A DNA stretch of 52,531 nt, from NCBI GenBank assembly GCA_022564635.1, contig JADFLA010000004.1:1-52531 (forward strand), given 5' to 3'. The notes under the pieces were generated by a model. That model was given only the letters and a program-made list of their open reading frames with translations. It was not told where the DNA came from and did no database searches. Shown one piece after another: positions 25,848-43,455 of the stretch; position 1 is the first letter of the stretch; every line of letters starts with the position of its first letter. This stretch comes from Nanobdellota archaeon. Its GTDB lineage: Archaea; Nanobdellota; Nanobdellia; Woesearchaeales; GW2011-AR4. The position numbers were made by a program, and so were the translations under genes.

Positions 25848-25915
25848 TTTTTATATTATTATTTAAGTTTTTATTATTATTGAGTTTTATTTTATATTGG
25901 AATTTTTAAATGTGC

Positions 25916-26809
25916 TTAATTTTTCTTCTTTACAGCATGCCCCCCAAACTCTCTCCTTGTAGCAGCTATTACCTTTTTTCCCAAAATAAACTTCTTACTT
26001 TTATCCTGCCTTATTTTTGTAGCAATTTCAAAAGCAGGAGCATACCCTTTAATCGATTTTGCTGTTTTCTTGAGCTCGTCAATTGTAACACTACCAATTT
26101 TTGGACTAATATTATTAAAATCTGGTCTTTTAAGTGCTATATTTGTAAGGTCAAGTAACCAACTATTTACCACACTTGCTGGCCTCCACACAGAAGTTGC
26201 TTTAACAATATCTATCGGCTGTTTAAACTTACTGAGTAACTCTACACCTTCTGCTAAACCTTGCAAATATACATACTCAACTATGTTATGCACACTTTTG
26301 ACAAAATGTCCTGCTCCGGCATTTCCAAAATAACCATAACCTCCTTTAGCAGAAAGAGCTCTGCAAATAGGTTCTATATACCTAAATTTTTTCTTAGGTC
26401 CACCAATCATTAAAGTGTATCCATTTTTTAGGCCCCAAATACCTCCTGATACACCGCAATCAAAAAAATAAATGCCATATTTTTTACACCATTTGTCATG
26501 TTTTTCTGCATTTTTATAGAAATCATTTGCCCCATCTATTATAATATCCCCTTTCTTTAATAACCGTAGTATTTTTTTCATCATATGATCAGTAGCTTTG
26601 CCTGCCGGTAACATCAACCAAACAATTTTCTTCCCAGGCAGCTTCTCAATTAACTCCTCAACACTGTAAGCAGGAATAGCACCTTTCCTAGCAATTTTCG
26701 TGACTTTTTCAGGGCTTCTATTATATGCAACAACATTAATTTTATACTTAAGAAGTCTCTCAACCATATGAAAACCCATTCTCCCTAAACCAATAAAACC
26801 CAGTTTCAT
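25916..26809 (-). CDS. gnd: 6-phosphogluconate dehydrogenase (decarboxylating), short type
   Basis: GLGRMG, WLMLPAG, DCGVSGG, GAGHFVKSVHNIVEY, SWLLDL, REFGGH. Confidence 0.92.
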   Translation of the reverse strand: MKLGFIGLGRMGFHMVERLLKYKINVVAYNRSPEKVTKIARKGAIPAYSVEELIEKLPGKKIVWLMLPAGKATDHMMKKILRLLKKGDIIIDGANDFYKNAEKHDKWCKKYGIYFFDCGVSGGIWGLKNGYTLMIGGPKKKFRYIEPICRALSAKGGYGYFGNAGAGHFVKSVHNIVEYVYLQGLAEGVELLSKFKQPIDIVKATSVWRPASVVNSWLLDLTNIALKRPDFNNISPKIGSVTIDELKKTAKSIKGYAPAFEIATKIRQDKSKKFILGKKVIAATRREFGGHAVKKKN

Positions 26810-27778: not shown

Positions 27779-29272
27779 TTATACATATGTTTTAATAGGA
27801 TCTAATTCCTTAACCTCAACTTTACCAACCAAACTCCTCAACATATGACCAGATATTTCCAAATCATAAAATTTCTTCAACTCTAATCTTCCTTTTACTC
27901 CGACAATTAATGGATAAGTTCCAAATTGTCTGCAAAATGTAGTATTGCCGTCATAGATCTCTGCATAACAATTCCTAAGTACAGTACCTTTTGGAATGAT
28001 TCTTTGTAACATTGGCCAATCAATCTTCTGTCTTATCTCATTTCTCCATTTCCAATAATATTTTTTATTTTTCTTCAAAAATTTATCTTTGCCTTCATCA
28101 AATAAAGAAGTTCCTTCAAATATAGCAACCTGCCTTATATTAATTCTTCTTAACATTAAACCATCATTATATATTTTCTTAAGCCATTTCATATTTTCTT
28201 CATGAGTTTTTTTACTTTCCCCCCTTAACCCAAAAATTATGTTGATGCCTGGCAAGAACCTTGGCATTCCATCTTCCCCCCTTTCTGCTCCATATTTATT
28301 TAGAATCTTTACAGCTTCATAAGCAATATTAGGAGAACTATTAAGAGTGTTTTCCTTGCAAACTTCTTTATCAAAACTCTCTACTCCAAAAGCAGCTATA
28401 TTACCTGAAGTGCAATACTTAACAATAGCCTTTGTTATTTCATGGTTTTTGTCCATAATAACCTTAACTGGATTTACATTATCAAGATGTAAAACCCTAA
28501 TATCCTTACAATTTTCCCTTATTTCCTTTAACAATTCAATAGCATAAGGTAATGTGTAAAAACAAGTTTGCTTTCCCAATCTAAAATATTTACAACCAAG
28601 TTTATAAAACTCAACAACCTCTTTTAAAACATCTTCCTTATCTCTAAATTCAACTTTATTTTTTATTGGTTCTGTGCAAAAACTGCATTTTCCTATATCA
28701 CAACCATGTCCCGTCTCAATTTCTATCATTCTGTAATCCGGAATCTGTTTAATAATTTTTACACCACCAATTGCATAATCCTTAACCTTATCATATTTAA
28801 AATTAAACATAGAATAATCAACCTTATCAAATATTGATTTGTCATATTTCTCAAAGAATTTTCCCCCATAAAGCTGGGTTCCAAATACTGCCGGACCTGT
28901 AAGTATTTTTTTGCATTTAAGATCCCTAATTAATGGAATAACCTCATTTAAAGTCCCAGGCACTGCAGAAAGATATTTCCCAGGAACATGAACACCTAAA
29001 ACAATAATTAATACATCAGTTTCTTCCAATATTTTATTAATATTTTTATAATTAATTGTTAAATTGTAAGTTGTAATGTTTGTTTTTTGAGATGGTTTAG
29101 GATGTCGTACTTCTGAATTATTTTTCTTGTATAGTCTTAAATCATCTATTGTCAAATAATTTACATCTTCATTCAAATAACCTGCTATATACCTTGGATA
29201 TGTCCCCAGATAAGGTGGAACACCTAATCCTGCTGGCTCATCAGTATAGCAATCCAAAATTGTATATGTCAT
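27779..29272 (-). CDS. Archaeal radical SAM protein (COG1031-like) with C-terminal TRAM-like segment
   Basis: YTDEPAGLGVPPY, VPGKYL, ETGHGCDIGKCSFCTEP, LHLDNVNP, RRINIRQV, RQFGTYP. Confidence 0.85.
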   Translation of the reverse strand: MTYTILDCYTDEPAGLGVPPYLGTYPRYIAGYLNEDVNYLTIDDLRLYKKNNSEVRHPKPSQKTNITTYNLTINYKNINKILEETDVLIIVLGVHVPGKYLSAVPGTLNEVIPLIRDLKCKKILTGPAVFGTQLYGGKFFEKYDKSIFDKVDYSMFNFKYDKVKDYAIGGVKIIKQIPDYRMIEIETGHGCDIGKCSFCTEPIKNKVEFRDKEDVLKEVVEFYKLGCKYFRLGKQTCFYTLPYAIELLKEIRENCKDIRVLHLDNVNPVKVIMDKNHEITKAIVKYCTSGNIAAFGVESFDKEVCKENTLNSSPNIAYEAVKILNKYGAERGEDGMPRFLPGINIIFGLRGESKKTHEENMKWLKKIYNDGLMLRRINIRQVAIFEGTSLFDEGKDKFLKKNKKYYWKWRNEIRQKIDWPMLQRIIPKGTVLRNCYAEIYDGNTTFCRQFGTYPLIVGVKGRLELKKFYDLEISGHMLRSLVGKVEVKELDPIKTYV

Positions 29273-29373: not shown

Positions 29374-29988
29374 ATGGGGGCACTATTAATATCAATAATC
29401 GTTGTAGTTTTGATTATTGTTTTGTTCTTATTAAATTTCTACAGAGATCCTGAAAGAAAAATACCAATAGGCAACAATATAGTAAGCCCTGCAGATGGTC
29501 GCGTTTTAAAAATTTTAAAAACTAATAATAACAAAATAAAGATAAATAAAGGCTCTCTTGGAAAAATAGAAACCCTTACAAGGGATATAGCAAAAGAGTG
29601 CTATGTTATCTCGATTTTTATGTCTCCTTTTGATGTCCATGTTAACAGAGCTCCAATAGAAGGCGAAATAGGTTCTATAAAGTATAAAAAAGGAAAGTAT
29701 TTTGCTGCATATAATCTAAAAAAATCTTTAATGAACGAGAAAAATGAGATAATAATAAAAAATAAAATTATAGGAAAAATAAAGATGATACAGATTGCTG
29801 GTTTTCTTGCTAGAAGAATTATTTGCTCAGTAAATATTAATGATAAAGTTAATAAAGGACAGAGGATAGGCAAGATTGTACTTGGTTCACAAGTTACCTT
29901 AATATTACCATCAAAGAAAATAAAGCTTAAGATTAAAAAAAATCAAAAAGTGGTTGGGGGTGAAACAGTAGTTGCTATTTTAAGATGA
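29374..29988 (+). CDS. psd: Phosphatidylserine/archaetidylserine decarboxylase proenzyme
   Basis: FYRDPER, SPADG, IFMSPFDVHVNRAP, NEKN, QIAG..ARRI, LGS self-cleavage site. Confidence 0.93.
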   Translation: MGALLISIIVVVLIIVLFLLNFYRDPERKIPIGNNIVSPADGRVLKILKTNNNKIKINKGSLGKIETLTRDIAKECYVISIFMSPFDVHVNRAPIEGEIGSIKYKKGKYFAAYNLKKSLMNEKNEIIIKNKIIGKIKMIQIAGFLARRIICSVNINDKVNKGQRIGKIVLGSQVTLILPSKKIKLKIKKNQKVVGGETVVAILR

Positions 29989-30548
29989 ATTCCAAACTAG
30001 TATTTTTTTCTAATTTTCTTAAAAAACCAAAAGAAGTTGCAGCTGTTACTCCTAGTTCGAAATATGTAATCAATAAAATAACCAAAAATATTGATTTTAA
30101 CAAATCAAAATGCATTATTGAATATGGTCCGGGTGTTGGAACAATAACAAAAGAGATATTAAAGAACCTAAATCAAGATGCAAAATTAATCTGTTTTGAG
30201 TCAAACAAAAAATTTTGTAAATTCCTTAATCAAGATCTAGAAGATCCACGTTTAATAATTATAAATGATTCAGCTGAAAAACTCAATTTTTATCTTGAAA
30301 AACTTAATATAAATAATATTGATTACATATTATCCGGAATACCTTTTTCTTTGATTAAAAAGGAAATCAAAAAAGAAATTATAAAAAAAACAAGAGACAA
30401 CTTAAGAATAGGTGGAAAATTTATTATTTATCAACAATATAACTGGCATTTAAAAAAATATCTTGATATTTATTTCAAAAAAATTTCAACAAAAGTAGAG
30501 CTTAGAAATATACCTCCTACCTTGTTATATATATGTGAAAGAACATGA
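29985..30548 (+). CDS. Phospholipid N-methyltransferase (PmtA/COG3963-like)
   Basis: FLKKPKEVAAVTPSS, EYGPGVG, ILSGIPF, RNIPP; ATGA-coupled to psd. Confidence 0.8.
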   Translation: MNSKLVFFSNFLKKPKEVAAVTPSSKYVINKITKNIDFNKSKCIIEYGPGVGTITKEILKNLNQDAKLICFESNKKFCKFLNQDLEDPRLIIINDSAEKLNFYLEKLNINNIDYILSGIPFSLIKKEIKKEIIKKTRDNLRIGGKFIIYQQYNWHLKKYLDIYFKKISTKVELRNIPPTLLYICERT

Positions 30549-31579
30549 AAATAAGAATCAAGGAAAAAAAAATTTCTATAACAATAAGCTTATTTAGATT
30601 ATTCTCGGCATTTATATTATTTTTTATTATTGTTTCTGGAAAACAAGACATAGCTGTTTTTCTTTTTATTGTAACAGCATTTTGGTCTTTCTTTGAGCAT
30701 TTTATATACAAAAAACAGAAATCACAGTTGAGGTCTATAGTCGATTTATTGGCTGATAAACTGTTGGTAAACCTTACTGGAGTAGCTTTGGTAATAACAG
30801 ATTTACTTCCACTTTGGGCCATGTTAGTTTTTCTAGGCCGTGACCTACTAACAATAATAGGTGGCTCTTATTTATTTTATAAAGATATTAGGAGAGAATT
30901 TAAAGCTACTTTTATAGGAAAAATAACATTATTCTTCCAGATAATAGCATTGGTCCCTGCCATCCTAGGAGAGATAGACTGGGTTTTGATGTGGACAGCA
31001 ATAACATTAACAGTAATATCGGCAATAGAGTTATTCTTTAAATCAGAATTTAGATTAACAAGAAGAACAGATATAAGTGAATTTAGAATATCGAAGTTAT
31101 TGAAAATTTCGGATATTTTTACTTTGGCAAACATTATTTTTGGCTTAACCGCAATATTTTTTGCAATAAATAGGAACTATAATTATATGATAATTTCACT
31201 TTTCTTGGCTGTCTTAGCCGATTATACAGACGGAAAATTAGCAAAAAAACTTAAACAGCAAAATATTTTTGGAAAAGAACTGGATTCTTTAGCAGATACA
31301 GTATCTTTTGGTGTAGCTCCGGCAATTTTTGGTTTTTCTTTAATCCAAACACCTTTGGCAATAGTTTCCTTCACAATTTTTTTATTTTGCGGCGTCTTGA
31401 GATTAGCCCGGTATAATATCATGGACATGCAAGACAGCTATGCAGGAATGCCTATAACCCTAAATGGAATTATTATTCCAATAGTTTACCTTGCTAAAGT
31501 ACCTTTTGATTATTATCCATATATATACATTTTACTAGGTATTCTTATGGTGTCATCTTTAGGAATTAGAAAATTATAA
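30545..31579 (+). CDS. pssA: Fusion: degenerate PgsA-like domain + phosphatidylserine synthase (PssA-type)
   Basis: C-terminal domain has DYTDGKLAK..FGKELDSLADTVSFGVAPA, LRLARYN, GMP. N-terminal domain retains DLLADK and GRD but lacks DxxDGxxAR. Confidence 0.85.
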   Translation: MKIRIKEKKISITISLFRLFSAFILFFIIVSGKQDIAVFLFIVTAFWSFFEHFIYKKQKSQLRSIVDLLADKLLVNLTGVALVITDLLPLWAMLVFLGRDLLTIIGGSYLFYKDIRREFKATFIGKITLFFQIIALVPAILGEIDWVLMWTAITLTVISAIELFFKSEFRLTRRTDISEFRISKLLKISDIFTLANIIFGLTAIFFAINRNYNYMIISLFLAVLADYTDGKLAKKLKQQNIFGKELDSLADTVSFGVAPAIFGFSLIQTPLAIVSFTIFLFCGVLRLARYNIMDMQDSYAGMPITLNGIIIPIVYLAKVPFDYYPYIYILLGILMVSSLGIRKL

Positions 31580-31586
31580 CTTAAAA

Positions 31587-32027
31587 TCAAGAAACAATAT
31601 AACTAAAAATCGCAGAAATAAAACCTATAATCAAACCAACAAGCACTTGCATAGGGGTGTGACCTAAAGAATAATGAAATTTACTTATTTTTATATTTTC
31701 ATATTTAACAATTTTTTCAATTATTTTTCCTTCCTCACCAACACTTCTTCTTACACCCATTGCATCCCTTAGAACAATCAAAGAAAAAGTAAAAACTACA
31801 AAAAATAGCGGGCTTAGACCTTGATTTAACCATATTATAGTTGTAAGCGAACTTACTAAAGCAGAGTGTGTACTTGGCATTCCTCCTGTTATAATCAAAT
31901 CCTTAAAATGAAATTTTTGTTTGTGTTTTAACGTAATGATTAATATTTTTGCTAATTGAGCTATAACCCCTGCTAATAAGATAGATAGAAAAATATTATT
32001 TGCGAATAAATCAGCTATAATGGGCAT
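31587..32027 (-). CDS. Divergent PAP2 / DUF212 membrane protein
   Basis: AQLAK, TGGMPSTHSA, DAMGVRR, LGHTP.QV; ATG 32027 preferred. Confidence 0.9.
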   Translation of the reverse strand: MPIIADLFANNIFLSILLAGVIAQLAKILIITLKHKQKFHFKDLIITGGMPSTHSALVSSLTTIIWLNQGLSPLFFVVFTFSLIVLRDAMGVRRSVGEEGKIIEKIVKYENIKISKFHYSLGHTPMQVLVGLIIGFISAIFSYIVS

Positions 32028-32072
32028 ATTAAAAAAGCTTAAATAATAGTTTATAAATATTTCTAAAGTCAA

Positions 32073-32783
32073 ATGAAACAAAAGCACCATACTACATTTT
32101 ATATATTAACTGTAATAATAATTGTAATTTTTTTCTTATCCTTGAAATTCGGATATATAGACAAATTAGACCTAAGTCCATCTAAAATAAAAGATGAACT
32201 ATTGGAATTTGGGATATTTGCGCCACTAATATTAATTGCAATTCAATTTTTGTTAGCGATTATATCTATTTTACCAAGTGCATTATTTGTTATAGCAGGA
32301 GGTTACTTATTTGGACCGTTCTTTGGCACCTTATACAGCCTAATAGGCATGTTAATAGGATCTTTAGTAGTCTTCTCAATTGCAAAGAGATTTGGAAGAA
32401 ATTTTGTTGAAAGATTTGTAGATAAAAGGGAGTTACACCATTTTGATTTATTCTTTAAAAAGAAAGGGAAATTGGTTTTTATTTTTGCAAGTTACCTATC
32501 AATTTTTCCTAGAGATACTATAAGTCTCTGTGCTGGATTAACAAAGATTAAAAAATTGGAATTCATTATGATTTCAATAATGGCATTTATTCCTCACCTA
32601 TTAATACTTACTTATTTTGGCTCTCAATTATCCAAAAATATTTTTGACTATAGGATAATATTAGCTGGAATAATTATAATTGTCTCGCTAATTTTATATT
32701 ATTTTAGACACAAAATTAAAGGTTTAATAGTAAAAGAAATAAAAATATTTGAAGAAGAGTATAAAAAGAAAAAGTTTTTTTAA
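32073..32783 (+). CDS. DedA/TVP38/VTT family membrane protein
   Basis: P....IAGGYLFG..G..YS..G...GS...F.IAKRFGR. Confidence 0.9.
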   Translation: MKQKHHTTFYILTVIIIVIFFLSLKFGYIDKLDLSPSKIKDELLEFGIFAPLILIAIQFLLAIISILPSALFVIAGGYLFGPFFGTLYSLIGMLIGSLVVFSIAKRFGRNFVERFVDKRELHHFDLFFKKKGKLVFIFASYLSIFPRDTISLCAGLTKIKKLEFIMISIMAFIPHLLILTYFGSQLSKNIFDYRIILAGIIIIVSLILYYFRHKIKGLIVKEIKIFEEEYKKKKFF

Positions 32784-32804
32784 AAAAGAGGAGTTAATTA
32801 TAGC

Positions 32805-32882
32805 ATGGTAAGACTAATTGTTTATAATATAGAATATTGTGAGGGTATGACAGGTTTATGGTGGGAATATTTTAAAATTTGA
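32805..32882 (+). pseudogene. 25-codon N-terminal remnant, resembling an endonuclease/exonuclease/phosphatase (EEP) family start
   Basis: GAGGAG RBS, then MVRLIVYNIEYCEGMTGLWWEYFKI-TGA; hydrophobic-YNI is the typical first EEP strand. Confidence 0.45.
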
Positions 32883-32929
32883 TTTGCGTAAATAAAACCA
32901 ATATAGAAATGATCTTGAGTGATGCATAG

Positions 32930-33490
32930 CTAGATATTTGATAATATTTCCTTTCTATGCCAGAGTAAGAAATTTAATGCGTAACCAAGGGATATAATTG
33001 TCATAATCAAAGTTAAATAAAAAACTAAAGTATTATTGAAAAGAAATATTATTTTATCTGAATATGTAAGGTATAAAAAAATCTGTATATAGAGTACTAC
33101 AATTGTTTGCATAAAAAGTTTACTTTTTCCCATCCAATTTGCACCAACAACTTTCTTTGGAGTAGAGCAAAACTGTCTAATTCCAGTAACTAGCAATTCT
33201 CTAAATAAAATTAACAGTGCCATCCATAATGGAATCAGATCTAAATCTACAAAAATAAAAAACATTGTAAGAATTAGCATTTTGTCAATAAGGGGGTCAA
33301 AGAATGTACCAAATGCAGATTTTTGGTTGTGATGCCTTGCAATAAACCCATCAGCCCAATCAGTCAAAGAAGCAATAATAAAAAATATTGTGCTTAACAA
33401 TATATAATTTGGATTATCTGAGTAGAGAAGAAATGCTATAGTTGGAATTAAGAAAAATCTAATGAGTGTTAACAGATTTGGTATTTTCAT
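32930..33490 (-). CDS. pgsA: CDP-alcohol phosphatidyltransferase, PgsA-like
   Basis: MKIPNLLTLIR, TDWADGFIAR..FGTFFDPLIDK, RELLVTGIR, GKSK..Q; ATG 33490 preferred. Confidence 0.88.
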   Translation of the reverse strand: MKIPNLLTLIRFFLIPTIAFLLYSDNPNYILLSTIFFIIASLTDWADGFIARHHNQKSAFGTFFDPLIDKMLILTMFFIFVDLDLIPLWMALLILFRELLVTGIRQFCSTPKKVVGANWMGKSKLFMQTIVVLYIQIFLYLTYSDKIIFLFNNTLVFYLTLIMTIISLGYALNFLLWHRKEILSNI

Positions 33491-33567
33491 ATAAGATGAA
33501 GAATTAAAGTCTTTGCTTTTTATATCTTTCGTAAAATTTATTAACACATTATAAATATCTCCCGTCA

Positions 33568-34782
33568 ATGAATTTTCATAAGGAAAATAAGGAATTGCAA
33601 AGTTTATTGGATAATAGCTCGTCAGAGAGTACTTATCTGAATAATTTAAATATTCATGTAGGGAATAATGAACATGAAAATATAGTCAAGGCTATGAGAA
33701 AATTTGGAGAAAGAGTTCTTTTTTGCACTGGAAATAGGGCAATGAGGCATTATGGATTCTTAGACATCTATTTAAAATTGTTTAGCAAATTTAATTTTAG
33801 AGTAGTGTATTATGATAATATTTCAGTAAACCCAACCTTAAAACAGATGGAAGAAGGTCTTACTGTAGCAAAAGAGTTTAATCCTGATTTTATTTTTGCA
33901 TTAGGCGGCGGCTCAGTTATTGATACAGCAAAAGTAATAAGTGTTGGATTATTTGGAGATATTTGGGACTTTGTTGAAAAAAAGCAGGAGATTAAAAAAG
34001 CAATTCCAATCGTAGCAAGCGCAACTACGTCAGGAACTGGTAGTCATGTAACCCCTTATGCAGTTATTACTAATACAGATACATTACAAAAAAAAACATT
34101 AAAGCACGATCTACTGTTGCCTAAGATGTCGATTAATGACTTAGATATAATAAAATATATGCCAAAGTACATTATAGCAACAACTGGTTTTGATGTTTTA
34201 TGTCATGCGACTGAAGTATTTACCCGAAATGAATGTACAAACATAGCAGAAAATTTTTGTATCAAATCATGTAAGTCGATAAGAGAGAATCTCGTTAGCT
34301 CTTATAATCAGGATTCTGTTAAGAACAAATTGGGTATGATTTATGCTGACATATATGCAGGAATTGCTTTAGCATTAATTGGTACACATGTTCCTCATGC
34401 TATATCACATCCAATATCAGCAAGATTCCAAAATATTAATCATGGGCATTCATTGGCTTATATTACAGCTGAAACTGCAAAAAAACTTATAGAGAAAAAG
34501 AATTCCAATTTAAATAACAAATTTAGGTTTTTATCAGATATATTGGGTGGTAGTTCTGATTTTGTTAGAGCAGTTAATAATTATAAACAATTATTAGGGT
34601 TAAATAGCATCCACACTTTTAATGATATGGATTGTCAATTAATATACGAAGACACTCTAGGTTACAGGAGGGATAGTGTTGATAGAAGTCCTGTTGTATT
34701 ATTGGATGAAGATATAAAAGATATTATTTTTCATTCCCTAAAAAATGATAATGCTAAAATTAATAAAGGTCATCATTTATAA
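33568..34782 (+). CDS. Iron-containing alcohol dehydrogenase family protein
   Basis: NPT, LGGGSVIDTAK, TTSGTGS, D.LCHATE, HAISH, HG metal ligands. Confidence 0.9.
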   Translation: MNFHKENKELQSLLDNSSSESTYLNNLNIHVGNNEHENIVKAMRKFGERVLFCTGNRAMRHYGFLDIYLKLFSKFNFRVVYYDNISVNPTLKQMEEGLTVAKEFNPDFIFALGGGSVIDTAKVISVGLFGDIWDFVEKKQEIKKAIPIVASATTSGTGSHVTPYAVITNTDTLQKKTLKHDLLLPKMSINDLDIIKYMPKYIIATTGFDVLCHATEVFTRNECTNIAENFCIKSCKSIRENLVSSYNQDSVKNKLGMIYADIYAGIALALIGTHVPHAISHPISARFQNINHGHSLAYITAETAKKLIEKKNSNLNNKFRFLSDILGGSSDFVRAVNNYKQLLGLNSIHTFNDMDCQLIYEDTLGYRRDSVDRSPVVLLDEDIKDIIFHSLKNDNAKINKGHHL

Positions 34783-35811
34783 TTTCACAGATTTAAACGA
34801 CCCACTTGATAAAATTATATACCTAAACATAGACAAATATAATAAAATAAATGTTATAATTAATATTTGTTCTTTGTAAATAAAATTTATTAATATTGCA
34901 ATGATTGCAAAATAAATAATACCTACAGAAATTTTTGCAATAGGTGTTACAAGCATTTTTCTATATTTTTTTAGAAGAACAATTTTTGACAGTGGAATAA
35001 ATATAGCTGGCAAAATTAATAACAGTATCCAGATTAAATCTATATGACCCTTGATAGTTAAAAGAAGAAAGCTTGTTAATATTAATAATCCGTCTGTAAA
35101 AGAATCAAATATCCTTCCGAATTCAGTCGTTTGATTCATAATTCTAGCTGAAATTCCATCAAGCTTATCACTTATTACGATTATGGCAAAAATGAGTAAG
35201 GAATAATTTAATTTTGAATTAATTATTGTAACTGCAAATAAAGGTAATAGCCCAAAACGCATAAAAGTAATAATATTTGGTATATTTAGAATTTTTATAT
35301 CTAATATATTCCTTATTTTAATTATATACCCAAGTCCAGAAACAACTGTAAAAATAACCGCTACTAACATGAAATACCAATTGAATGGAAAATTTACGAT
35401 AACAGCTAATATTGCTATTGTTTGGGTAATTGTTTTGATTTTTCCTAATCTTCCAGCTGGAATAATCTGTCTGTGTACAACAATGAGTCTTAGAAACGTA
35501 ATAACCCACTCCCTTGCTATTATTACAATTGCCATCCATGCTGGCACACCTTTACCAATTAAGAAAATAAGAGCTGCAGAAATAAGAAGTTTATCTGCAA
35601 TAGGGTCTATTATCTTCCCTATCCCAGTTATCTGCTGTTTTTTTCTTGCAATATATCCGTCAAGAGCATCAGATAAAGACAATACAATAAAAATAAAAGC
35701 TGCAATATAATCTCTATAAGGTATATCCATTAAAAGAAAAATTATAAATACTGGAATTAGAAGAATCCTAATGTAAGTTATCTGGTTTGGAATTGATAAA
35801 AGATCTTTCAT
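34777..35811 (-). CDS. Tandem two-domain CDP-alcohol phosphatidyltransferase
   Basis: IPNQIT..SDALDGYIAR..GKIIDPIADK and IPNIIT..SDKLDGISAR..GRIFDSFTD. Confidence 0.9.
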   Translation of the reverse strand: MKDLLSIPNQITYIRILLIPVFIIFLLMDIPYRDYIAAFIFIVLSLSDALDGYIARKKQQITGIGKIIDPIADKLLISAALIFLIGKGVPAWMAIVIIAREWVITFLRLIVVHRQIIPAGRLGKIKTITQTIAILAVIVNFPFNWYFMLVAVIFTVVSGLGYIIKIRNILDIKILNIPNIITFMRFGLLPLFAVTIINSKLNYSLLIFAIIVISDKLDGISARIMNQTTEFGRIFDSFTDGLLILTSFLLLTIKGHIDLIWILLLILPAIFIPLSKIVLLKKYRKMLVTPIAKISVGIIYFAIIAILINFIYKEQILIITFILLYLSMFRYIILSSGSFKSVKL

Positions 35812-35896
35812 TTTGCTATATAATATTAAAAATCATAAAATTTATAACCCTTATATATTTTTCCTTTTACTTTAAGAACTTTAATTTATACGCAAA

Positions 35897-36523
35897 ATGG
35901 TTTATCCTATTTTCAAAAGAGCAGTTTTGTTGCCTTTAAGATTATTCTTAAAAAAGATTAGAGGTATACAAAACATACCAAAAAATGGACCTTTTATTAT
36001 AACTTCTAACTACGAAAGCTATGTAGATCCATGGTTAATAGCATCAGTGATAATACCTCTAAAAAATAAAAAAATACATTATCTTGCAAAGAAAGGTCGT
36101 TTTTGGGATTTTTTTGGTGACACTATATCGGGAAAATGGATGGGGTGTGTTTGTGCAGATCAAGCAAAGGAAAAGGTCTTTGAAGAACTTTTGTCTTTAT
36201 TAAAAAGAAATGATATTGTGGGAATTATGATAGAGGGCCAAAGAACCTCAGGTGGAAAACTAAACAGAGGGAAAATAGGTGTTGTGAAATTGGCTCTTAA
36301 AGCCCATGTACCTATCCTTCCAATAGGACTTATTGGAACATACAACATAGCTCCAGGAAAAAAATTAATACCAAAACCAAGAAGAGCAAAATTGCATATA
36401 GGTAAACCAATATACCTGGATAAATACTACAAAAATAATATAAATGGGAAGCTATTAAGAAAATTAACCGATGATGTAATGCATGTTATATCAGAACTTA
36501 CAGGAAAGCCTTACAACTATTGA
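35897..36523 (+). CDS. PlsC-like lysophospholipid acyltransferase, catalytic His replaced by Tyr
   Basis: G.QNIPKNGPFIITSNYESYVD, YLAK, IEGQRT, VPILP.G..GT, IGKPI. Confidence 0.85.
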   Translation: MVYPIFKRAVLLPLRLFLKKIRGIQNIPKNGPFIITSNYESYVDPWLIASVIIPLKNKKIHYLAKKGRFWDFFGDTISGKWMGCVCADQAKEKVFEELLSLLKRNDIVGIMIEGQRTSGGKLNRGKIGVVKLALKAHVPILPIGLIGTYNIAPGKKLIPKPRRAKLHIGKPIYLDKYYKNNINGKLLRKLTDDVMHVISELTGKPYNY

Positions 36524-36545
36524 ATATCATAAAAATTAATTTAAA

Positions 36546-37223
36546 ATGAAATACGACTTACACAATCATACGTATTATTCTTCATGTAGCAATTTAAAAC
36601 CCGAAATACTCCTCAAGCTTATAAAAAAGAAAGGCATGAAAGGCATAGCTGTTACGGACCATAATACCATAAAAGGTGCACTTAAAGTAAAAAAACTAAA
36701 CAAAGATAAAGATTTTGAGGTTATTATAGGAGAAGAAGTGGACACAAATTATGGGGATGTTCTTACTTACTATTTGAAAAAAGAAATAAAAACTCATGAT
36801 TTTTTTTCTGTTGTTGATGAAGTAAAAAAACAAAATGGCTTAATCGTAATTCCCCATCCTTTTAGATTATCCATAAATCCAAAGCATAAATTCAAATATC
36901 CAATAAAGAAGTTAAAAAACAAAATTGATGCTATCGAGTGTTTTAATTCTAGAATGCTTCCAGGTAATAATGAAAAAGCGCAGGAACTGGCAAAAAAGCT
37001 TAAAATTCCTGGAATTGGAGGTTCAGATGCACATTTTAGATTTGACATAGGCAGAGCATATACAATTTTTGACGATAATCTAAACTTAAGAAAAGCCATA
37101 AAACAGAACAAAACAAGCTATGAAGGCACAATCATCTACGGCTCTCTTAGCGGATTGTCAAGTTTTCTGAGAAAAAGAATTTACAATAAGATCCCTGGAC
37201 TAAACACCGTTCCTATGAAATAA
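36546..37223 (+). CDS. PHP-domain metal-dependent phosphoesterase
   Basis: DLHNHT, AVTDHNT, GEE, PHPF, GGSDAH. Confidence 0.92.
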   Translation: MKYDLHNHTYYSSCSNLKPEILLKLIKKKGMKGIAVTDHNTIKGALKVKKLNKDKDFEVIIGEEVDTNYGDVLTYYLKKEIKTHDFFSVVDEVKKQNGLIVIPHPFRLSINPKHKFKYPIKKLKNKIDAIECFNSRMLPGNNEKAQELAKKLKIPGIGGSDAHFRFDIGRAYTIFDDNLNLRKAIKQNKTSYEGTIIYGSLSGLSSFLRKRIYNKIPGLNTVPMK

Positions 37224-38001
37224 AATATATGGGGTTTTTTGATATTTTAACTGTAACTTTCTGCCCTGCTTTGAATTTATGCTCTTTGCTCAAAGAATCA
37301 GCTATCAAAATACCATTTCCAACCTCAAAAATAATCTCTATTTTCTCATTTTTGTTTAAAACATTATTGACTAGAGTACATTTTGCGGAAATTTTTCCGC
37401 AGTAAGGCTCTCTAACAAGATATTCAAATTTATAAGAATTTAAAGACAAAATTTTTCCACCAGCACTTTTTATCCATGCATTGCTGCCTGCAGGAGTTGC
37501 AATTAAAACACCGCTGCTCTTCTGCCTTTCCTTCTTGCCCCTTACATTAAGAAAATACCTTGCTGTATGGTACTCCTTTTCCGATGCTATATAGAATTCG
37601 TTCAATGCCAGCTCTTTAACCCTTTTATTATTTATATAAGCCTCTAACCTTTGAAATTTTTTTATTTTATAATTTCCTCTTAAAAGTTCTTTAAATTTTT
37701 GTTCAAAGTTTTTTTTGTCAGCTACCATAAAAAAGCCTTCCTTGTATTTTGGATCAGAATTAACACCTAGAACTGGAGTTTTGTCAAAAATAAAATGAGA
37801 AGTACGCAAGAAAGTACCATCCCCACCAACAGCAATTATCAAATCCTTATTTTGAAATAATTTTTTGTTTAACTTTCTCCTATGAGATATTTTATAATTA
37901 ATATTGTATTTTTTCAATATATTTTTGACTATTCCTAATGTTGATTTTTCTACTTTACTTGTTGGTTTGGCATAGACTATTAAGATATTATTTAATTTCA
38001 T
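37213..38001 (-). CDS. nadK: NAD kinase
   Basis: GGDGTFL, ALNE, SSGVLIATPAGS.AW..SAGG. Confidence 0.9.
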   Translation of the reverse strand: MKLNNILIVYAKPTSKVEKSTLGIVKNILKKYNINYKISHRRKLNKKLFQNKDLIIAVGGDGTFLRTSHFIFDKTPVLGVNSDPKYKEGFFMVADKKNFEQKFKELLRGNYKIKKFQRLEAYINNKRVKELALNEFYIASEKEYHTARYFLNVRGKKERQKSSGVLIATPAGSNAWIKSAGGKILSLNSYKFEYLVREPYCGKISAKCTLVNNVLNKNEKIEIIFEVGNGILIADSLSKEHKFKAGQKVTVKISKNPIYFIS

Positions 38002-38049
38002 AGTTAATTTAAAATTTAATATTGTTTATATGTTTTATTGTTTTCAGAA

Positions 38050-38946
38050 TTATTTCTTATTTAAATTCAAATTCTCCATCCCCTTAATAATCATAACTAA
38101 ACCTTCATTAACAGGACACTTAATTCCATATTTCTTTCCTAACTCAACAACGGCCCCATTTAAATAATCAATTTCTGTTTTTTTGCCTTTAATTATGTCC
38201 TGGTACATTGAAGATAAGTTTTTAGAACCTTTATATCCAAATATCATTTTTTTAATAAAATCATCTTCAATCTGAATACCCTCCTTTTCTGCTACTTTAA
38301 TGCATTCATCTACAATTAGTTTTTTTAAAGGATTGAGCCTTTCATCAGCAATTCCTTTATTCTCAATTCTTAATATTGCGGTAATAGGATTAATCATGCA
38401 ATTCAATATTAATTTTTTCCACATATCAATCTTAATGTTTTCAGAAACATAAGCTTGTAATCCACATTTATCAAAATTCTCAGCTAAATTCTTGCTTATT
38501 TTATTATTCTCAATCGCAGTATAGCTTAAATTGTTATATTGAACTATTCCTGGCTCCAAGAAAGTAGTGCCGCAAGCAGTAACTCCACGCAAAACAAGGC
38601 ATTTGTCCCTAATAATTTCTTTTACAATATTTTCATTATAAAGACCATTCTGTAAACATAATATTATAGTATTTTTTTTAATTAAGTTTTTAATATTATT
38701 TATTGATTTTTCATTATCATAAACTTTTGTTGTAAGCAATATTAGTGTATCATCTTCAATTTTTTTAATTTCTGTTATCGCCTTTAATTTATATGTCTTA
38801 TTTTCCTCACCAGTAATCTTTAACCCATCCTTATTTATCTTATCAACATGCTCTTGCCTACCAACTAATGTAACATCATTTAGCTTTGATAATTTTGCTC
38901 CATAAAGACTTCCAATTGCCCCTGCTCCCAATACAACAATTTTCAT
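38050..38946 (-). CDS. panE: 2-dehydropantoate 2-reductase
   Basis: GAGAIG, LQNGL, WKKLILNC..NP, SSMYQD..TEIDYLNG. Confidence 0.92.
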   Translation of the reverse strand: MKIVVLGAGAIGSLYGAKLSKLNDVTLVGRQEHVDKINKDGLKITGEENKTYKLKAITEIKKIEDDTLILLTTKVYDNEKSINNIKNLIKKNTIILCLQNGLYNENIVKEIIRDKCLVLRGVTACGTTFLEPGIVQYNNLSYTAIENNKISKNLAENFDKCGLQAYVSENIKIDMWKKLILNCMINPITAILRIENKGIADERLNPLKKLIVDECIKVAEKEGIQIEDDFIKKMIFGYKGSKNLSSMYQDIIKGKKTEIDYLNGAVVELGKKYGIKCPVNEGLVMIIKGMENLNLNKK

Positions 38947-39098: not shown

Positions 39099-41786
39099 CT
39101 ATTCAATCAAAATAGCAACTTTGCCGGGCATTGCCTGTTTTGCTTTTGGCTCTTCACTTTTCCCATCAATAATCTCAACATCACAATCAAATTCTTGTTT
39201 AAAAACGTCTAATGAATTTTTTAAGTAATCTATTTCTTTGTTTCTACCAACAACTACTTTTGGCATTTTAGTTTCATCCTTAACAAGTTTAGGAACCATT
39301 TTTGAAATTTCCTTAATATAAATATCCAAATCACTTTTAGCAAAACTCTTTATTATTTCTCCAACATTCCTTGTTTTTTCTATCTTTTTCTTTAATTTTC
39401 TAATAAAATCATATTTCCATGCTTCAGCAACAAATATTCTTATTTTACTTGGCTTATCTATTTTTGCAAGTTCTATAACAGAATAAATATCCTTTTTTGT
39501 TCTATCCAAACTATCCTCAAGAGCCTCTGCTTCTTCATCAATCTTGCTTTCATCATAGCTAGGCCATTTTTGCAAAGAAGCAAATCCTTTTAATTTCAGT
39601 TTATTCCATAATTCTTCAGAAATATGCGGTGTAAAAGGACTCAGCAACAATATAAGATTTTTGATACATTCTCCAAAAACCTTCTTATTTTTTTCATTAT
39701 ATTTTTGAAGTGCATTTACAAATTCCATTATACTGCCTATTGCAATATTATACTTAAAGTTATTAATATTCTCTGTAACATTCTTTATGGTAATATGCAT
39801 TTTATTCAAAATAAATTTGTCTTTTTCGTTCAAACTTTTATATTTGGAATCTATTTTAATATCTTTAAGATTTTCATTAACCAGATTGTAAACTCTATTC
39901 AAGAACCTGAAAGCACCACTTACACCTTTATCGTTCCAATCCAGTTCCTTTTCAGGCATAGCAGCAAATAAAATAAATAATCTTCCAGTATCAGGTCCAT
40001 ATTTTCCTGTTATTTCTGTAGGATCAACTACATTGCCAATACTTTTGCTCATTTTTGCTCCATCCTTAATGACCATGCCTTGCGTCATAAGTCTAGTAAA
40101 AGGTTCATCAACATCCACTAAACCCAAATCCCTCAACGCTTTTGTAAAGAATCTGGCATAAAGTAAGTGCAAAATAGCATGTTCTATGCCGCCAATATAT
40201 TGGTTAACAGGCATCCAATAATTCGCAATTTTTTTGTCAAAAGGACCTTTGTTATATTTTGGACTGCAATACCTTATGAAATACCATGAACTGTCAACAA
40301 AAGTATCCATTGTATCTGTTTCCCTTCTTGCTTTGCTTTTACATTCAGGACATTTTGCTTCAACAAATTTCTTAGAGGTCTCTAAAGGATTTCCAGAACC
40401 TGTGAACTTAACATTCTTTGGGAGTTTAACTGGTAATCTCTCATATGGCACAGGAACAACACCACATTTATCACAATAAATCATTGGAATAGGTGTTCCC
40501 CAATATCTTTGTCTAGAAATTAACCAATCTCTTAATTTATATTGCACTGTTCTTTTTCCATAATTATTTTTCTCCATCCATTTTGATATTGGTTCAATAG
40601 CTTCTCTATTGTTCATACCAGAAAATCTTCCAGAATCAAATAGTATTCCGTCCTCTGTATAAGCTCGGCTTGCCTTATCCGCATCTATTTTGCTTCCGTC
40701 TTCAGAAATCACAAATTTTAATGGAATTTTATATTTTCTCGCAAATTCAAAATCCCTTTGGTCATGAGCATCAGCCATTACTATTCCAGTCCCATATTCC
40801 ATTATGACAAAATTCGCAAGATATATGGGAATTTCTTCTCCATTAACAGGATTTATTGTATATTTGCCAACAAAACATCCTATCTTATCCTTTCCTTCTG
40901 GAGTAGTCCTTTCCGCTAATGATTGCTTTTTGATTTTTTTTATTGTCTCTAAGACTTCTTTTTCATATTTCGTTCCTTTAACCCATTCCAAAACCAATGG
41001 ATGCTCGGGTGAAATAACAATAAATGTTACACTATAAATTGTATCTGGTCTTGTTGTAAAAGTTGGAATTACTTGTCCACTATCTTTTAATTTAAAGAAA
41101 ATGTCAACACCATAACTTTTCCCAATCCAATTCCGCTGCATTACTTTAACTCTTTCTGGCCAGTGCTCCAACTTATCCAAATCCTCTAAAAGCTGGTCAG
41201 CATATTTTGTTATCTTAAAAAACCATTGCTCAAGCTCTTTTTCTCCAACATCATTTTTGCATCTCCAGCATTTACCATCCTCAACCTGCTCGTTTGCCAG
41301 CACTGTAGTGCAGGAATTACACCAGTTCACAACTGCATTCTTTCTGTAAGCAAGTCCTTTTTCATAAAATTTTAAGAAAATCCATTGGTTCCACTTGTAA
41401 TAATCTTCTGTGCAGCTCTGTATCTGTCTGCTCCAGTCATAACTAAAACCTAGGCTTTGTTGCTGTTTTTTTATCTGATTAATATTATCCCAAGTCCACT
41501 TTTCCGGATCAACTTTATTTTTTATTGCAGCGTTTTCCGCTGGTAATCCAAAAGCATCATAACCCATTGGATAAAGAACATTATAACCATTCATTCTTTT
41601 AAATCTTGCAAGAGCATCACCTAAAGAATAATTTCGCAAATGACCCATATGTAATGTATTGCTTGGGTAGGGATACATTTCTAAACAATAGAACTTCTTC
41701 TTTTTCTTATCCTCTTTAACCTTAAATATATTCTTATCTTCCCACTTCTTCTGCCATTTCTTAGCTATTTTGTTGAAGTCTACCAT
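39099..41786 (-). CDS. leuS: Leucine--tRNA ligase (bacterial-type core, archaeal-type C-terminus)
   Basis: [57 protein letters not shown]; ends [14 protein letters not shown]. Confidence 0.96.
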
Positions 41787-42047: not shown

Positions 42048-42449
42048 TTATCGGTACGACTTTTGTCTTTTAGCTCTAGCCTGTCCATGCCTATTTGGCT
42101 TAGATGATTCTTTAAACCTTGAATCTGCAACCAAAAGATTTCTATCATAATTCAAAAAATCCTCTTTTAGCTTATCGCTTTTCGAAAACTCAACCAAACC
42201 TTTTGCGATAGCTAGCCTTGATGCATCTGCCTGGCTGGAAATTCCGCCACCAAAAACATTTACATTAATATTTACCTTATTTATTAGGTCTCCTGCAATA
42301 ATTAAAGGTTCCTTTATCTTTAATCTAGAGAGCTTTGGCTCATAAAAATCCAGAATTAAATTGTTTACTTTTACAATGCCCTTTCCCTGCCTTATTGTGG
42401 CTCTTGCAATGGCACTCTTTCTCTTTCCAGCAGCAGTTACGATTTTCAT
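42048..42449 (-). CDS. rps9: 30S ribosomal protein S9
   Basis: GKRKSAIARA, GGG..SQA, ARAKRQKSYR. Confidence 0.97.
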   Translation of the reverse strand: MKIVTAAGKRKSAIARATIRQGKGIVKVNNLILDFYEPKLSRLKIKEPLIIAGDLINKVNINVNVFGGGISSQADASRLAIAKGLVEFSKSDKLKEDFLNYDRNLLVADSRFKESSKPNRHGQARAKRQKSYR

Positions 42450-42862
42450 ATTTTAGCTCCTATATGCTTACAAACTTCCTTTACTGTAATATATTTAAGG
42501 TTTGGAACCTTTTCAACATTCGCTTCTTTTAAAACATCAAATTTTTGATTTTTAAAATTTTCAGGAATACCCATATGGCACTTTATGTTTTTGAAAGCTA
42601 TCCTTCCTCTTTCTTTTTTATATGGTAGCATCCCCCTTATAGCCCTCTTAACAAACCTGTCAGGCATTCTTCTGATAAAAGGTCCCTTAGCCGGTATGCC
42701 TCTTTTCAAAAAATTATCATAATCTTTAAAAATATTAGCCCTATCGCCTGTAATAACAGAGTTTTCACAATTAACAATATCTATTTTTTCCCCTAACAAC
42801 GCTTTCTTTGCTACATATGTTCCAAGCCTTCCTAATATTAAATTATTTGCATCAATTATCAT
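42446..42862 (-). CDS. rpl13: 50S ribosomal protein L13
   Basis: IDA..ILGRL, GP...R.P, IRGMLP. Confidence 0.97.
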   Translation of the reverse strand: MIIDANNLILGRLGTYVAKKALLGEKIDIVNCENSVITGDRANIFKDYDNFLKRGIPAKGPFIRRMPDRFVKRAIRGMLPYKKERGRIAFKNIKCHMGIPENFKNQKFDVLKEANVEKVPNLKYITVKEVCKHIGAKI

Positions 42863-42936
42863 TTTGCCATTATTTGATTTTTAATTATTGTTTTATTTTT
42901 TATTGAATTTTTGATTATTGAATTATTTAATTGTCT

Positions 42937-43299: not shown

Positions 43300-43455
43300 T
43301 TTTATAATTATTATTTTAATTTGATTTTTTAATTCATTATTTTTAATTTTAATTATTTTTTATTGAATTTTTATTATTGTATAAAAAGTATGAAATACTT
43401 TTTATGCTTGAAAAAATTCTTATTTTTTCATTGTAATTAATTTTTAATCATGGTA

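Follow-up and report, generated by a model that had tools for sequence, protein, structure and literature searches.

The 52,531-nt contig JADFLA010000004.1, which as a whole is the window analysed here, belongs to the genome of a Nanobdellota archaeon (GCA_022564635.1, designated G000 below) and carries at 29374-37223 an island of genes for phospholipid head-group synthesis. All the genes that an earlier note on this DNA had listed for the island were found again with the open reading frame (ORF) list, Pfam and NCBIfam. The first of them, psd (29374-29988, + strand; PF02666, 158 bits), is predicted to encode a phosphatidylserine or archaetidylserine decarboxylase (NF003685, 199.8 against a cut-off of 183) and has an LGS motif near the C terminus, of which we take the Gly-Ser pair to be the self-cleavage site. 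It is followed on the same strand by a gene for an S-adenosylmethionine (SAM)-dependent methyltransferase with a GxGxG SAM-binding motif (29985-30548), a putative phosphatidylethanolamine (PE) N-methyltransferase of the PmtA/OlsG-like kind, and by fusion 1 (30545-31579, 344 amino acids), a tandem CDP-alcohol transferase with two PF01066 stretches. ATGA start/stop overlaps at 29985-29988 (psd/methyltransferase) and 30545-30548 (methyltransferase/fusion 1) bear out the translational coupling that had been claimed for these three genes. The methyltransferase stayed below the equivalog cut-offs for OlsG (NF041658, 107.3 against 350) and for the Agrobacterium PmtA (NF045881, 60.1 against 250). Its closest homologues outside the Woesearchaeota were bacterial (Balneolales, Rhodothermaceae) with approximately 40-45% identity, and many of the bacterial homologues carry the JGI label "phospholipid N-methyltransferase". 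Judged by its context, ATGA-coupled between psd and pssA, the protein is putatively assigned this same activity.

The remaining island genes are found on both strands. DUF212 (31587-32090, - strand; PF02681, 123 bits) encodes a divergent PAP2-type putative lipid phosphatase and is missing from the equivalent position in G001, a genome of the same genus. The true start of DUF212 is probably Met 22, since the Pfam match does not start before residue 30 and the start as called runs into DedA. The DedA/VTT gene (32073-32783, +; PF09335, 87.6 bits) encodes a putative lipid or polyprenyl-phosphate scramblase, which scored 41.8 with the UptA model (cut-off 250). PgsA (32930-33568, -; TIGR00560, 132 against 109) has a single CDP-alcohol transferase domain, matched at 32996-33490, and its true start is likely near 33490. 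Then follow Fe-ADH, an iron-type alcohol dehydrogenase (33568-34782, +; PF00465, 140 bits), and fusion 2 (34777-35811, -), also of 344 amino acids and with two PF01066 stretches (217 bits; TIGR00560, 178.6; ClsA, 114.5 against a cut-off of 240). The island ends with a PlsC-family acyltransferase (35897-36523, +; PF01553, 64-65 bits against 23) and a PHP esterase (36546-37223, +; PF02811 and PF13263), a metal-dependent phosphoesterase and candidate phosphatidylglycerophosphate (PGP) phosphatase; a PHP gene was found within the lipid cluster of the related genomes G015, G018, G020, G033 and G002 as well.

In the relatives examined Fe-ADH does not belong to the lipid cluster, and the island copy is probably a passenger and not a glycerol-1-phosphate dehydrogenase (G1PDH). 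The Fe-ADH genes of G000 were considered as divergent G1PDH and rejected, the G1PDH model giving 26.9 for the island protein and 39-46 for a paralogue on contig C57, against 140-213 with the Fe-ADH/lactaldehyde reductase models. The paralogue is part of a 527-aa fusion (C57:2991-4574, L020, -) of a cytidylyltransferase-like domain with Fe-ADH. This protein matches a TagD-like glycerol-3-phosphate (G3P) cytidylyltransferase model with 58.7 bits, its gene has an NTP-transferase gene and a HIT-domain gene as neighbours, and it could supply a CDP-alcohol donor to a CDP-alcohol transferase.

Tandem CDP-alcohol transferases

A genome-wide PF01066 search gave exactly five CDP-alcohol transferase domains in G000, all of them in the island and scoring 45.7-143.6 bits against a cut-off of 22; the five domains counted in the earlier note are thus an exact number and the only ones in the genome. 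The catalytic motif of this family (PF01066, PROSITE PS00379) is D-x2-D-G-x2-A-R-x7-8-G-x3-D-x3-D (PMC9385802). In an alignment of the five domains it was canonical in PgsA (DWADGFIAR...G...D...D) and in both halves of fusion 2, and an R to K variant was present in the C-terminal half of fusion 1. The C-terminal half is predicted to be the phosphatidylserine synthase PssA (TIGR00473, 113.7 against a cut-off of 107, residues 193-338), and fusion 1 did not reach the archaetidylserine synthase cut-offs (114.3 against 240 and 106.2 against 200; NF038087 and TIGR04217). The N-terminal half lacks D-x2-D-G-x2-A-R and reads FWSFFEHFIYK...DLLAD, so that the name PssA, given before to the whole gene, suits the C-terminal half and not the N-terminal half, which has no catalytic signature.

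Among the best 120 matches to fusion 1 the homologues had 279-378 amino acids, a length by which nearly all of them should be fused in this way, and all given names were Woesearchaeota or Nanoarchaeota. The sequence that replaces the motif in the N-terminal half was conserved in these 120 homologues and the C-terminal half was canonical, indicating that the loss of the motif is not decay. By its sequence the N-terminal half is a conserved pseudo-enzyme, and fusion 2 is predicted to consist of two intact PgsA/Cls-like halves. A crude hydropathy count gave 6 + 6 hydrophobic segments for fusion 2 and 6 + 5 for fusion 1, which fits two six-helix halves with the same orientation. The solved members of the CDP-alcohol transferase family are dimers. 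The fusions may be covalent forms of this usual dimer, with fusion 1 carrying an inactive partner. Transferases joined in tandem, of which one half is conserved yet inactive, are a new architecture in a well-studied enzyme family.

The distribution of the genes was determined in 41 genomes, namely G000 and 40 relatives (24 of the same family and 16 of other families of the order), with 19 of the 41 being at least 90% complete. The relatives share kinship and are thus not independent samples. One genome, G005, is unpublished and was counted in all tallies; without it each tally containing it drops by one. Linkage counts were obtained by comparing coordinates by hand across profile-search matches and are not the output of a tool, and 10 bacterial and 4 archaeal genomes were included as controls. 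Of the 24 other family genomes, 21 have at least one tandem fusion, be it fusion 1 or fusion 2, whereas no such fusion was seen in the 16 genomes from other families.

Backbone genes and their conservation

It had been stated that no CdsA/CarS, geranylgeranylglyceryl phosphate synthase (GGGPS) or G1PDH is evident at the island. This holds for the window. Elsewhere in the genome a CarS was found, on contig C66 (C66:2888-3427; PF01864, 129-130 bits against 22; CDP-archaeol synthase equivalog NF003114, 152.6 against a cut-off of 148). Over its full length the protein can be aligned with the A. pernix CarS structure 5GUF (E 1e-11), and identity was 61-93% across 119 best matches, self excluded. 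On C66, CarS is followed by a 155-aa Woesearchaeota-specific gene for which no family was found, and then by RpiB. For bacterial CdsA (PF01148; NF008635) the search of G000 returned only the CarS locus itself (37.7 bits, partial) and a protein on contig C20, and in the 41 genomes the best PF01148 match outside the CarS loci was a partial one of 49.7 bits in a 153-aa frame. The C20 gene (C20:31738-32331, L019:4739-5332) is kept across the family and encodes a membrane protein of approximately 200 aa with a weak CdsA/dolichol-kinase match. It was rejected as a CdsA, giving 24.2 bits with PF01148 in the genome scan (cut-off 24), 22.1 as a protein and no NCBIfam match. Its nearest atlas cluster is automatically named phytol kinase family. 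As a lead only, the protein seems more likely an isoprenoid-alcohol kinase than a CdsA, and as such it could phosphorylate scavenged polyprenols.

A gene for GpsA was found on contig C21 (PF07479, about 189-191 bits; PF01210, 171.7; PF20618, 68.8), and its product scored 399.5 with the subfamily model NF000942 against a cut-off of 257. It forms an operon with two acyltransferase genes, head to tail on one strand, and both acyltransferases have an intact HX4D (HTSYMD and HASYYD), which is the catalytic motif of PlsC/LPLAT acyltransferases. The operon is flanked by the archaeal uS2 gene on one side and by RadA and RPA on the other, a position which argues that it is not a contaminant. Just upstream are genes for a fatty-acid-desaturase-family protein and a FabG-type reductase. 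The desaturase-family gene (C21:21741-22745, L016:5742-6746; 117 bits) encodes a membrane protein and lies approximately 1 kb from the operon. Such a gene also adjoins the GpsA operon in G015, G017 and G019, and within the genus the 12 genomes other than G000 gave no match for it; an O2-dependent acyl desaturase would be odd in a sediment archaeon.

Four PF01553 acyltransferases were found in G000, namely the island protein, the two on C21 (93.8 and 83.5 bits against 23) and one domain of a protein on contig C44 (54.9). The C44 protein is a 789-aa, Aas-like fusion in which an AMP-forming ligase is followed by a phosphopantetheine-binding domain and then by an acyltransferase, the last of which retains the His of HX4D. 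The island protein reads NYESYVD, whereas 14 of 14 compared acyltransferases read NH....D; these were the two on C21, seven from relatives, mostly linked to GpsA, and five short ones of G001, G015, G018, G020 and L029, and in G015, G018 and G020 the short acyltransferase directly adjoins CarS. The Tyr codon of the island gene is TAC and is covered with 0 differences by a unitig of X1, a marine-sediment DNA run that is possibly the source sample. The best match of the island protein, with 46% identity, is a GpsA-adjacent acyltransferase, and the island protein itself is most likely a recent paralogue with altered or lost activity. The previous description as PlsC-like is correct for the PF01553 family and has to be qualified for the Tyr in place of the catalytic His, and the re-acylation of lipids proposed for the island finds no support in its sole acyltransferase, in which this His is lost.

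No ketoacyl synthase was found in G000, and a single one of the 41 genomes gave a match over the cut-off in the profile search. As no fatty-acid synthase marker was found, acyl chains must come from outside. The enzymes of the archaeal ether-lipid backbone were also not found in G000: the best G1PDH match was 39 bits against a cut-off of 413, profile searches for GGGPS, UbiA prenyltransferases, polyprenyl synthase and HMG-CoA reductase gave 0 matches, and tblastn with the polyprenyl synthase and UbiA proteins of relatives gave nothing better than E 0.9. The genome inventory proposed in the earlier note thus returned CarS and GpsA as present, with cdsA, egsA (G1PDH), GGGPS/DGGGPS (the latter being digeranylgeranylglyceryl phosphate synthase), HMG-CoA reductase and plsY not found. 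The full ether pathway that had been named as contrary evidence is not seen in this genome, and the description of phospholipid head-group genes in a DPANN archaeon without a recognisable ether-lipid backbone pathway stands. In the controls, the profile searches matched the archaeal markers in all 4 archaeal genomes, and GpsA (PF07479) and PF01553 were matched in the 10 bacterial genomes, with the 4 archaeal ones giving neither.

Across the 41 genomes, GpsA was found in 27 (20 of the 24 other family genomes), a PF01553 acyltransferase in 35 (22 of 24), CarS in 29 (21 of 24), a CDP-alcohol transferase in 33 (23 of 24) and IspH in 27 (22 of 24). GGGPS gave weak partial matches of at most 24 bits in seven genomes, four of them among the 24, all below the cut-off there, and G1PDH was over the cut-off in 0 of 41 and 0 of 24. 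The one ketoacyl synthase over the cut-off was in one of the 24. Polyprenyl synthase was present in 20 genomes (12 of 24) and UbiA over the cut-off in 12 (7 of 24, or 9 of 24 with any match); among the 12 other genomes of the genus of G000, polyprenyl synthase was found in three and a real UbiA match in one. About a dozen proteins of relatives (approximately 365-395 aa) matched the G1PDH model with 45-62 bits and were considered as G1PDH; the three that were sampled were all AroB. The sole G1PDH-like protein was found in G036, a member of another family, with 140 bits.

The genes are linked in a recurrent manner. In all 21 GpsA-bearing family genomes, including G000, and in G033, an acyltransferase lies on the same contig within approximately 1.3 kb of GpsA, and most of these genomes have two. 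CarS lies within approximately 1.5 kb of a CDP-alcohol transferase or acyltransferase in 9 of 12 family genomes outside the genus, and in 14 of the 29 genomes with a CarS it shares a cluster with CDP-alcohol transferases. The order is fusion 2, PHP, acyltransferase, CarS, an unknown gene and RpiB in G018, the same preceded by fusion 1 in G020, and RpiB, an unknown gene, CarS, acyltransferase, PHP, PgsA, fusion 1 and Psd in G015. L029, a named groundwater Woesearchaeota contig, has radical SAM, Psd, fusion 1, fusion 2, acyltransferase, glycosyltransferase family 2 (GT2) and CarS, and G033, of another family, has CarS, PHP, acyltransferase, PgsA, GT2 and radical SAM. In G001 the order is methyltransferase, fusion 1, fusion 2, acyltransferase, NAD kinase, a SLOG-family gene and PanE. 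Among the loci examined, the methyltransferase gene stands between psd and fusion 1 only in the genus of G000, with no such gene there in L029, L030 and G015. These gene orders indicate that the ancestral arrangement was one supercluster. As reconstructed from them, the supercluster was split from CarS in the genus of G000, and G000 gained DUF212, DedA, PgsA and Fe-ADH between fusion 1 and fusion 2.

Contamination or a chimeric assembly of the metagenome bin could also place bacterial-type genes in an archaeal genome. The bin (1.43 Mb, completeness 87.45%) consists of 74 contigs, and the ends of the 9.7-kb contig C12 carry fragments that duplicate IspG (N terminus, C12:3-146) and the PHP esterase (first 59 codons of a second gene, C12:9529-9705), pointing to a degree of fragmentation or strain mixing. 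The PHP fragment shares 86% identity with the island PHP, 93% with the stand-alone PHP of G002 (L043:100-753) and 76% with the PHP that G020 has in its cluster, and the C12 duplicates represent either a second lipid-gene neighbourhood broken at the contig end or strain mixing in the bin. Against contamination, the island shares its contig with seven archaeal ribosomal and RNA-polymerase genes at 42048-46085 (uS9, uL13, eL18, RpoD, uS11, uS4 and uS13), all over the archaeal equivalog cut-offs, and the named nearest homologues are Candidatus Woesearchaeota or Nanoarchaeota, both in agreement with the DPANN-like archaeon that had been recognised earlier. The G+C content is even across the window (0.27-0.35), X1 unitigs tile 29719-38857 with 0-1 differences, and pieces of the island and of the ribosomal-protein region were found in X2, a second marine-sediment sample. 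There is no sign of the mis-assembly across the island region that the earlier note had named as a risk. The GpsA operon sits between uS2 and RadA, the linkages recur in about 20 related genomes and two named Woesearchaeota contigs, and the estimated contamination of the bin is 0.7%, and we consider this explanation hardly credible. The metatranscriptome X5 gave two tiny, partly fitting pieces of the island and is uninformative on expression, and tRNA and Rfam scans of the window gave no match.

Proposed lipid assembly

We propose, with about even confidence for and against, that the island is the head-group half of a family-wide phospholipid pathway which has a bacterial-type backbone half, and in which lipids of G3P and acyl chains would be made from scavenged fatty acids with CarS taking the role of CdsA. 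The observations behind this proposal are gene content, motifs, operon structure, synteny and lineage-wide presence and absence, and every substrate is assigned by homology and context. GpsA would convert dihydroxyacetone phosphate to sn-glycerol-3-phosphate, external fatty acids would be activated by AMP-forming ligases, including the ligase-carrier-acyltransferase fusion of C44, and the two PlsC-family acyltransferases of the GpsA operon would form lysophosphatidic acid and then phosphatidic acid (PA). The CarS homologue, the sole CTP:lipid cytidylyltransferase in G000, would then yield the CDP-activated lipid. From this, phosphatidylserine (PS) would be formed by the C-terminal half of fusion 1, PE by Psd and N-methyl-PE by the methyltransferase; PGP would be formed by PgsA and/or fusion 2, and phosphatidylglycerol (PG) by the PHP esterase and/or the DUF212 phosphatase. 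Cardiolipin could possibly be made by one half of fusion 2, and DedA may help in transbilayer lipid movement. In favour of such a route, the head-group enzymes look intact, with the catalytic motif kept in four of the five CDP-alcohol transferase domains (R to K in one of the four) and the LGS site kept in Psd. The assignments that seem weakest are those of CarS to a diacyl substrate, of a PlsC-type enzyme to the acylation of G3P, and of the PGP phosphatase.

It has been reported that CDP-alcohol transferases, Psd and Pgp take archaeal as well as bacterial lipids, and that CarS and CdsA discriminate between them (PMC9385802). As the head-group enzymes accept both types, the island alone cannot reveal the type of lipid, whereas the supply side can. 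What G000 has on this side is GpsA for G3P, acyltransferases and enzymes that handle fatty acids, and an ether pathway is not recognisable. The argument on the lipid divide rests on genes outside the coordinates of the earlier note. A stand-alone kit for re-heading and re-acylating host lipids, as proposed there, does not describe the genome well, since G000 also has CarS and a module of GpsA and two acyltransferases for the backbone, which is conserved in the family.

Several findings weigh against the proposed pathway, and the most serious of them concern CarS. It passes the CDP-archaeol synthase equivalog, and no sign of changed specificity was seen in its sequence. Characterised CarS enzymes have a strong preference for digeranylgeranylglyceryl phosphate (DGGGP) over PA, and the A. 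fulgidus CarS fails to replace CdsA of E. coli (PMC9385802). Action of CarS on a diacyl substrate would conflict with this known specificity and is the weak link of the pathway; what argues for CarS acting on PA is its clustering with PlsC-type acyltransferases and the lack of a CdsA in the 41 genomes. With the lysophosphatidic acid acyltransferase (LPAAT) model TIGR00530 (cut-off 102.95), the C21 proteins fall short with 88.9 and 61.6, and the island protein scored 57.5. No PlsY was found in G000, and no PlsB/PlsX/PlsY-type enzyme was identified, PlsB and PlsX not having been searched. Archaeal PlsC homologues were considered unlikely to act in membrane synthesis by Coleman et al. 2019 (PMC6431249). 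GpsA might have no role beyond providing the G3P that PgsA takes as head-group acceptor. The AMP-forming acyl-CoA ligase in the window (15761-17269, +) passes the long-chain-fatty-acid-CoA ligase subfamily NF004837 (500.2 against a cut-off of 476), and its best score was for malonyl-CoA synthase (556.8 against 558); activation of fatty acids by this enzyme is possible, its substrate being uncertain. IspH, IspG and Dxr of the bacterial methylerythritol phosphate (MEP) pathway were found in G000 (including C62:603-1526 and C74:10684-11703). Polyprenyl synthase adjoins IspH in sister genera, and the IspH neighbour in G000 encodes a 471-aa protein for which no family was found. With the MEP enzymes, and with polyprenyl synthase and UbiA in the family, the lineage may have isoprenoid lipids. 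Moreover, as G000 is 87% complete and one PHP gene is cut at a contig end, absences in G000 are no proof.

These findings could also mean that ordinary archaeal head groups are put on isoprenoid ether lipids, with a canonical CarS and with archaetidylserine, archaetidylethanolamine and archaetidylglycerol as products. The ether core would then come from an archaeal host, from unrecognised enzymes or from genes on unassembled DNA, and GpsA and the acyltransferases would serve another purpose. The CarS score and the match to the A. pernix structure fit such an explanation, as do the about equal scores of Psd and PssA on archaeal and bacterial models, the presence of IspH, IspG and Dxr, the incompleteness of the genome (87%) and, as a lead only, the isoprenoid-alcohol-kinase-like protein of C20. 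Polyprenyl synthase beside IspH, together with UbiA, in some family members was noted by Castelle et al. 2021 (PMC8204110). Yet in the 41 genomes, of which 19 are at least 90% complete, GGGPS was never convincing and G1PDH never reached its cut-off, the counts in the genus are low (polyprenyl synthase 3/12, real UbiA 1/12), and CarS of this lineage clusters with PlsC-type acyltransferases. In addition, characterised CarS favours unsaturated DGGGP over saturated archaetidic acid (PMC9385802), which makes the recycling of mature archaeol lipids from a host awkward. We therefore consider ordinary ether-lipid head-group synthesis quite improbable.

Alternatively, the archaeon may not assemble lipids of its own and may take whole phospholipids or lyso-lipids from a bacterial or archaeal host, exchanging their head groups and acyl chains. 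Once lipid phosphatases had stripped the heads, the lipid would be re-activated by CarS and receive new heads from the CDP-alcohol transferases, Psd and the methyltransferase, and lyso-lipids would be re-acylated by PlsC-type enzymes. Chain synthesis of neither kind was found in G000, the island holds DedA and the lipid-phosphatase candidates DUF212 and PHP, the C44 fusion resembles Aas-type enzymes, which re-acylate lysophospholipids, and the acyltransferases are of the LPAAT type and not recognised G3P acyltransferases. Lipid scavenging by DPANN archaea, with possible modification of bacterial host lipids by Woesearchaeia, has been proposed (PMC11868695). The operon of GpsA with two acyltransferases, in contrast, is hard to explain without acylation of new backbones, since the linkage was seen in 21 of 21 GpsA-bearing family genomes. 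The catalytic His is lost from the island acyltransferase, and no phospholipase turned up, no search having been aimed at phospholipases. We regard remodelling of host lipids without own assembly as unlikely.

The earlier interpretation is in our view partly supported, the more likely course being phospholipid assembly from self-made G3P and scavenged fatty acids. Taken further, the proposed pathway would give a whole Woesearchaeota family a bacterial-type membrane of PS, PE, N-methyl-PE, PG and maybe cardiolipin, made with a re-purposed CarS and fused transferase 'dimers'; we put this forward tentatively and with some doubt. The sister genera that have MEP enzymes, polyprenyl synthase and UbiA might make mixed acyl/prenyl G3P lipids.

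Neighbouring genes and known systems

On either side of the island lies a conserved cluster neighbour. The radical-SAM protein (27779-29272, -; 497 aa; PF04055, 39.6 bits) has homologues of 501 or 487 aa at the cluster edge of L029 and G033. It was considered as a tetraether or membrane-spanning-lipid synthase, and a phmmer search against the PDB gave one 26-bit match, the unnamed radical-SAM protein 9ccb, by which such a link is not shown. The NAD-kinase-family protein (37213-38001, -) has weak NADK Pfam matches and a GGDG motif; its gene also adjoins the cluster in G001 and G002 and has a paralogue on contig C17. A hidden diacylglycerol kinase was considered here and rejected, as 23 of 23 PDB matches were NAD(H) kinases or of the same fold and GGDG is present.

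Further along the contig, a MacB/LolCDE-like ABC exporter is encoded at 17465-23636, consisting of an ATPase, two FtsX-type permeases and a 439-aa protein without a family. Two AMP-forming ligases flank it, of which one is FadD/MatB-like and the other PaaK/FlxY-like, and a link of the exporter to lipid or acyl traffic is speculation. In the first 11,345 nt (1-11345, -) there is a long run of around twelve genes, whose products are of the thioredoxin-fold, DsbD/DsbE/ResA-like and CopZ/MerTP-like (heavy-metal-binding) kinds; several of these proteins match the NCBI (seleno)protein families TsoB-like, Rcas_1661, UxxU metal-binding and WAxxUGC. This run is an extracytoplasmic thiol-redox and metal-handling cluster, unusually large for a small archaeon. 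At 24324-26809 (-), zwf (glucose-6-phosphate dehydrogenase, 659 bits) lies beside 6-phosphogluconate dehydrogenase, and together they make up the oxidative pentose-phosphate branch, which is uncommon among archaea. The leucyl-tRNA synthetase (39099-41786, -) is of the bacterial type (leuS_bact, 1026.8 against 548; leuS_arch, 300.6 against 648), and its gene adjoins the archaeal ribosomal genes. Among the latter, uS4 (44663-45481, -) was called with 272 aa and the archaeal uS4 models span residues 1-176, so that the protein has either a C-terminal extension of approximately 95 residues or an ORF call that is too long.

Archaea are set apart from bacteria by the lipid divide, with ether-linked isoprenoids on glycerol-1-phosphate in the former and ester-linked fatty acids on G3P in the latter. 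The divide holds a central place in theories on how early cells evolved and on how eukaryotes, in spite of an archaeal host, acquired membranes of the bacterial type. Bacterial-type lipid genes in uncultured archaea were reportedly described by Villanueva et al. 2017. GpsA in Woesearchaeota and PlsC in DPANN bins have been reported (Coleman et al. 2019, PMC6431249). Castelle et al. 2021 (PMC8204110) described a Woesearchaeota clade with the MEP pathway, a UbiA gene close by and a G3P dehydrogenase of bacterial type; G000 belongs to this MEP-bearing kind. FabG, FabI, FabZ and cyclopropane-fatty-acid synthase genes were reported in DPANN archaea of oxygen-deficient zones (Zhang et al. 2024, PMC10936187), Woesearchaeia have been suggested to modify the lipids of a bacterial host (PMC11868695), and a term search of Liu et al. 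2018 (PMC5994134) gave nothing on lipids. In the parts of the literature available, we found no published account of the GpsA-acyltransferase operon, of the cluster of CarS, acyltransferase, PHP, fusions and Psd, of tandem transferases with a conserved dead half, or of a PmtA-like gene in DPANN archaea, some of which genes may be listed in supplementary tables. GpsA and PlsC in DPANN archaea are thus already in print, and what is new is the integrated pathway.

If the proposed pathway is true, the lipid divide would have a natural archaeal lineage on its bacterial side, and the specificity barrier between CarS and CdsA would have been crossed in nature. If abundant sediment Woesearchaeota carry fatty-acid phospholipids, they would be missed by archaeal lipid biomarkers and counted as bacteria.

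With the bacterial CDP-diacylglycerol (Kennedy-type) pathway, G000 shares GpsA, the PlsC family, type II PssA, Psd, a PmtA-like methyltransferase, PgsA and PGP phosphatase candidates of the PAP2 kind. It differs in its archaeal host, in having the archaeal CarS as its sole cytidylyltransferase with no CdsA found, and in its CDP-alcohol transferases, which are tandem fusions, one with a dead half; PlsY was not found (PlsB and PlsX were not searched), and there was no fatty-acid synthase marker. The archaeal head-group pathway, consisting of CarS, archaetidylserine synthase, Asd and archaetidylglycerophosphate synthase, has in common with G000 a CarS over the cut-off and homologues of PssA, Psd and PgsA. 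It differs in that G1PDH, GGGPS, DGGGPS, geranylgeranyl diphosphate synthase and the mevalonate pathway were not found in G000, that the archaetidylserine synthase models were not passed, and that CarS of this lineage lies beside PlsC-type acyltransferases. Like Aas of E. coli, the C44 protein joins an AMP-forming ligase to an HX4D-bearing acyltransferase of the PlsC family, and it matches Aas-type NCBIfam models, whereas its order of ligase, carrier and acyltransferase, its built-in phosphopantetheine-binding domain and its scores far below the Aas cut-offs set it apart. Archaeal GpsA and PlsC have hitherto been treated as scattered and probably non-membrane genes (Coleman et al. 2019, PMC6431249), and here they form a conserved operon amid archaeal core genes. 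Where Coleman et al. 2019 and Castelle et al. 2021 list single genes, in the parts of these papers available, the lineage of G000 has them in integrated clusters.

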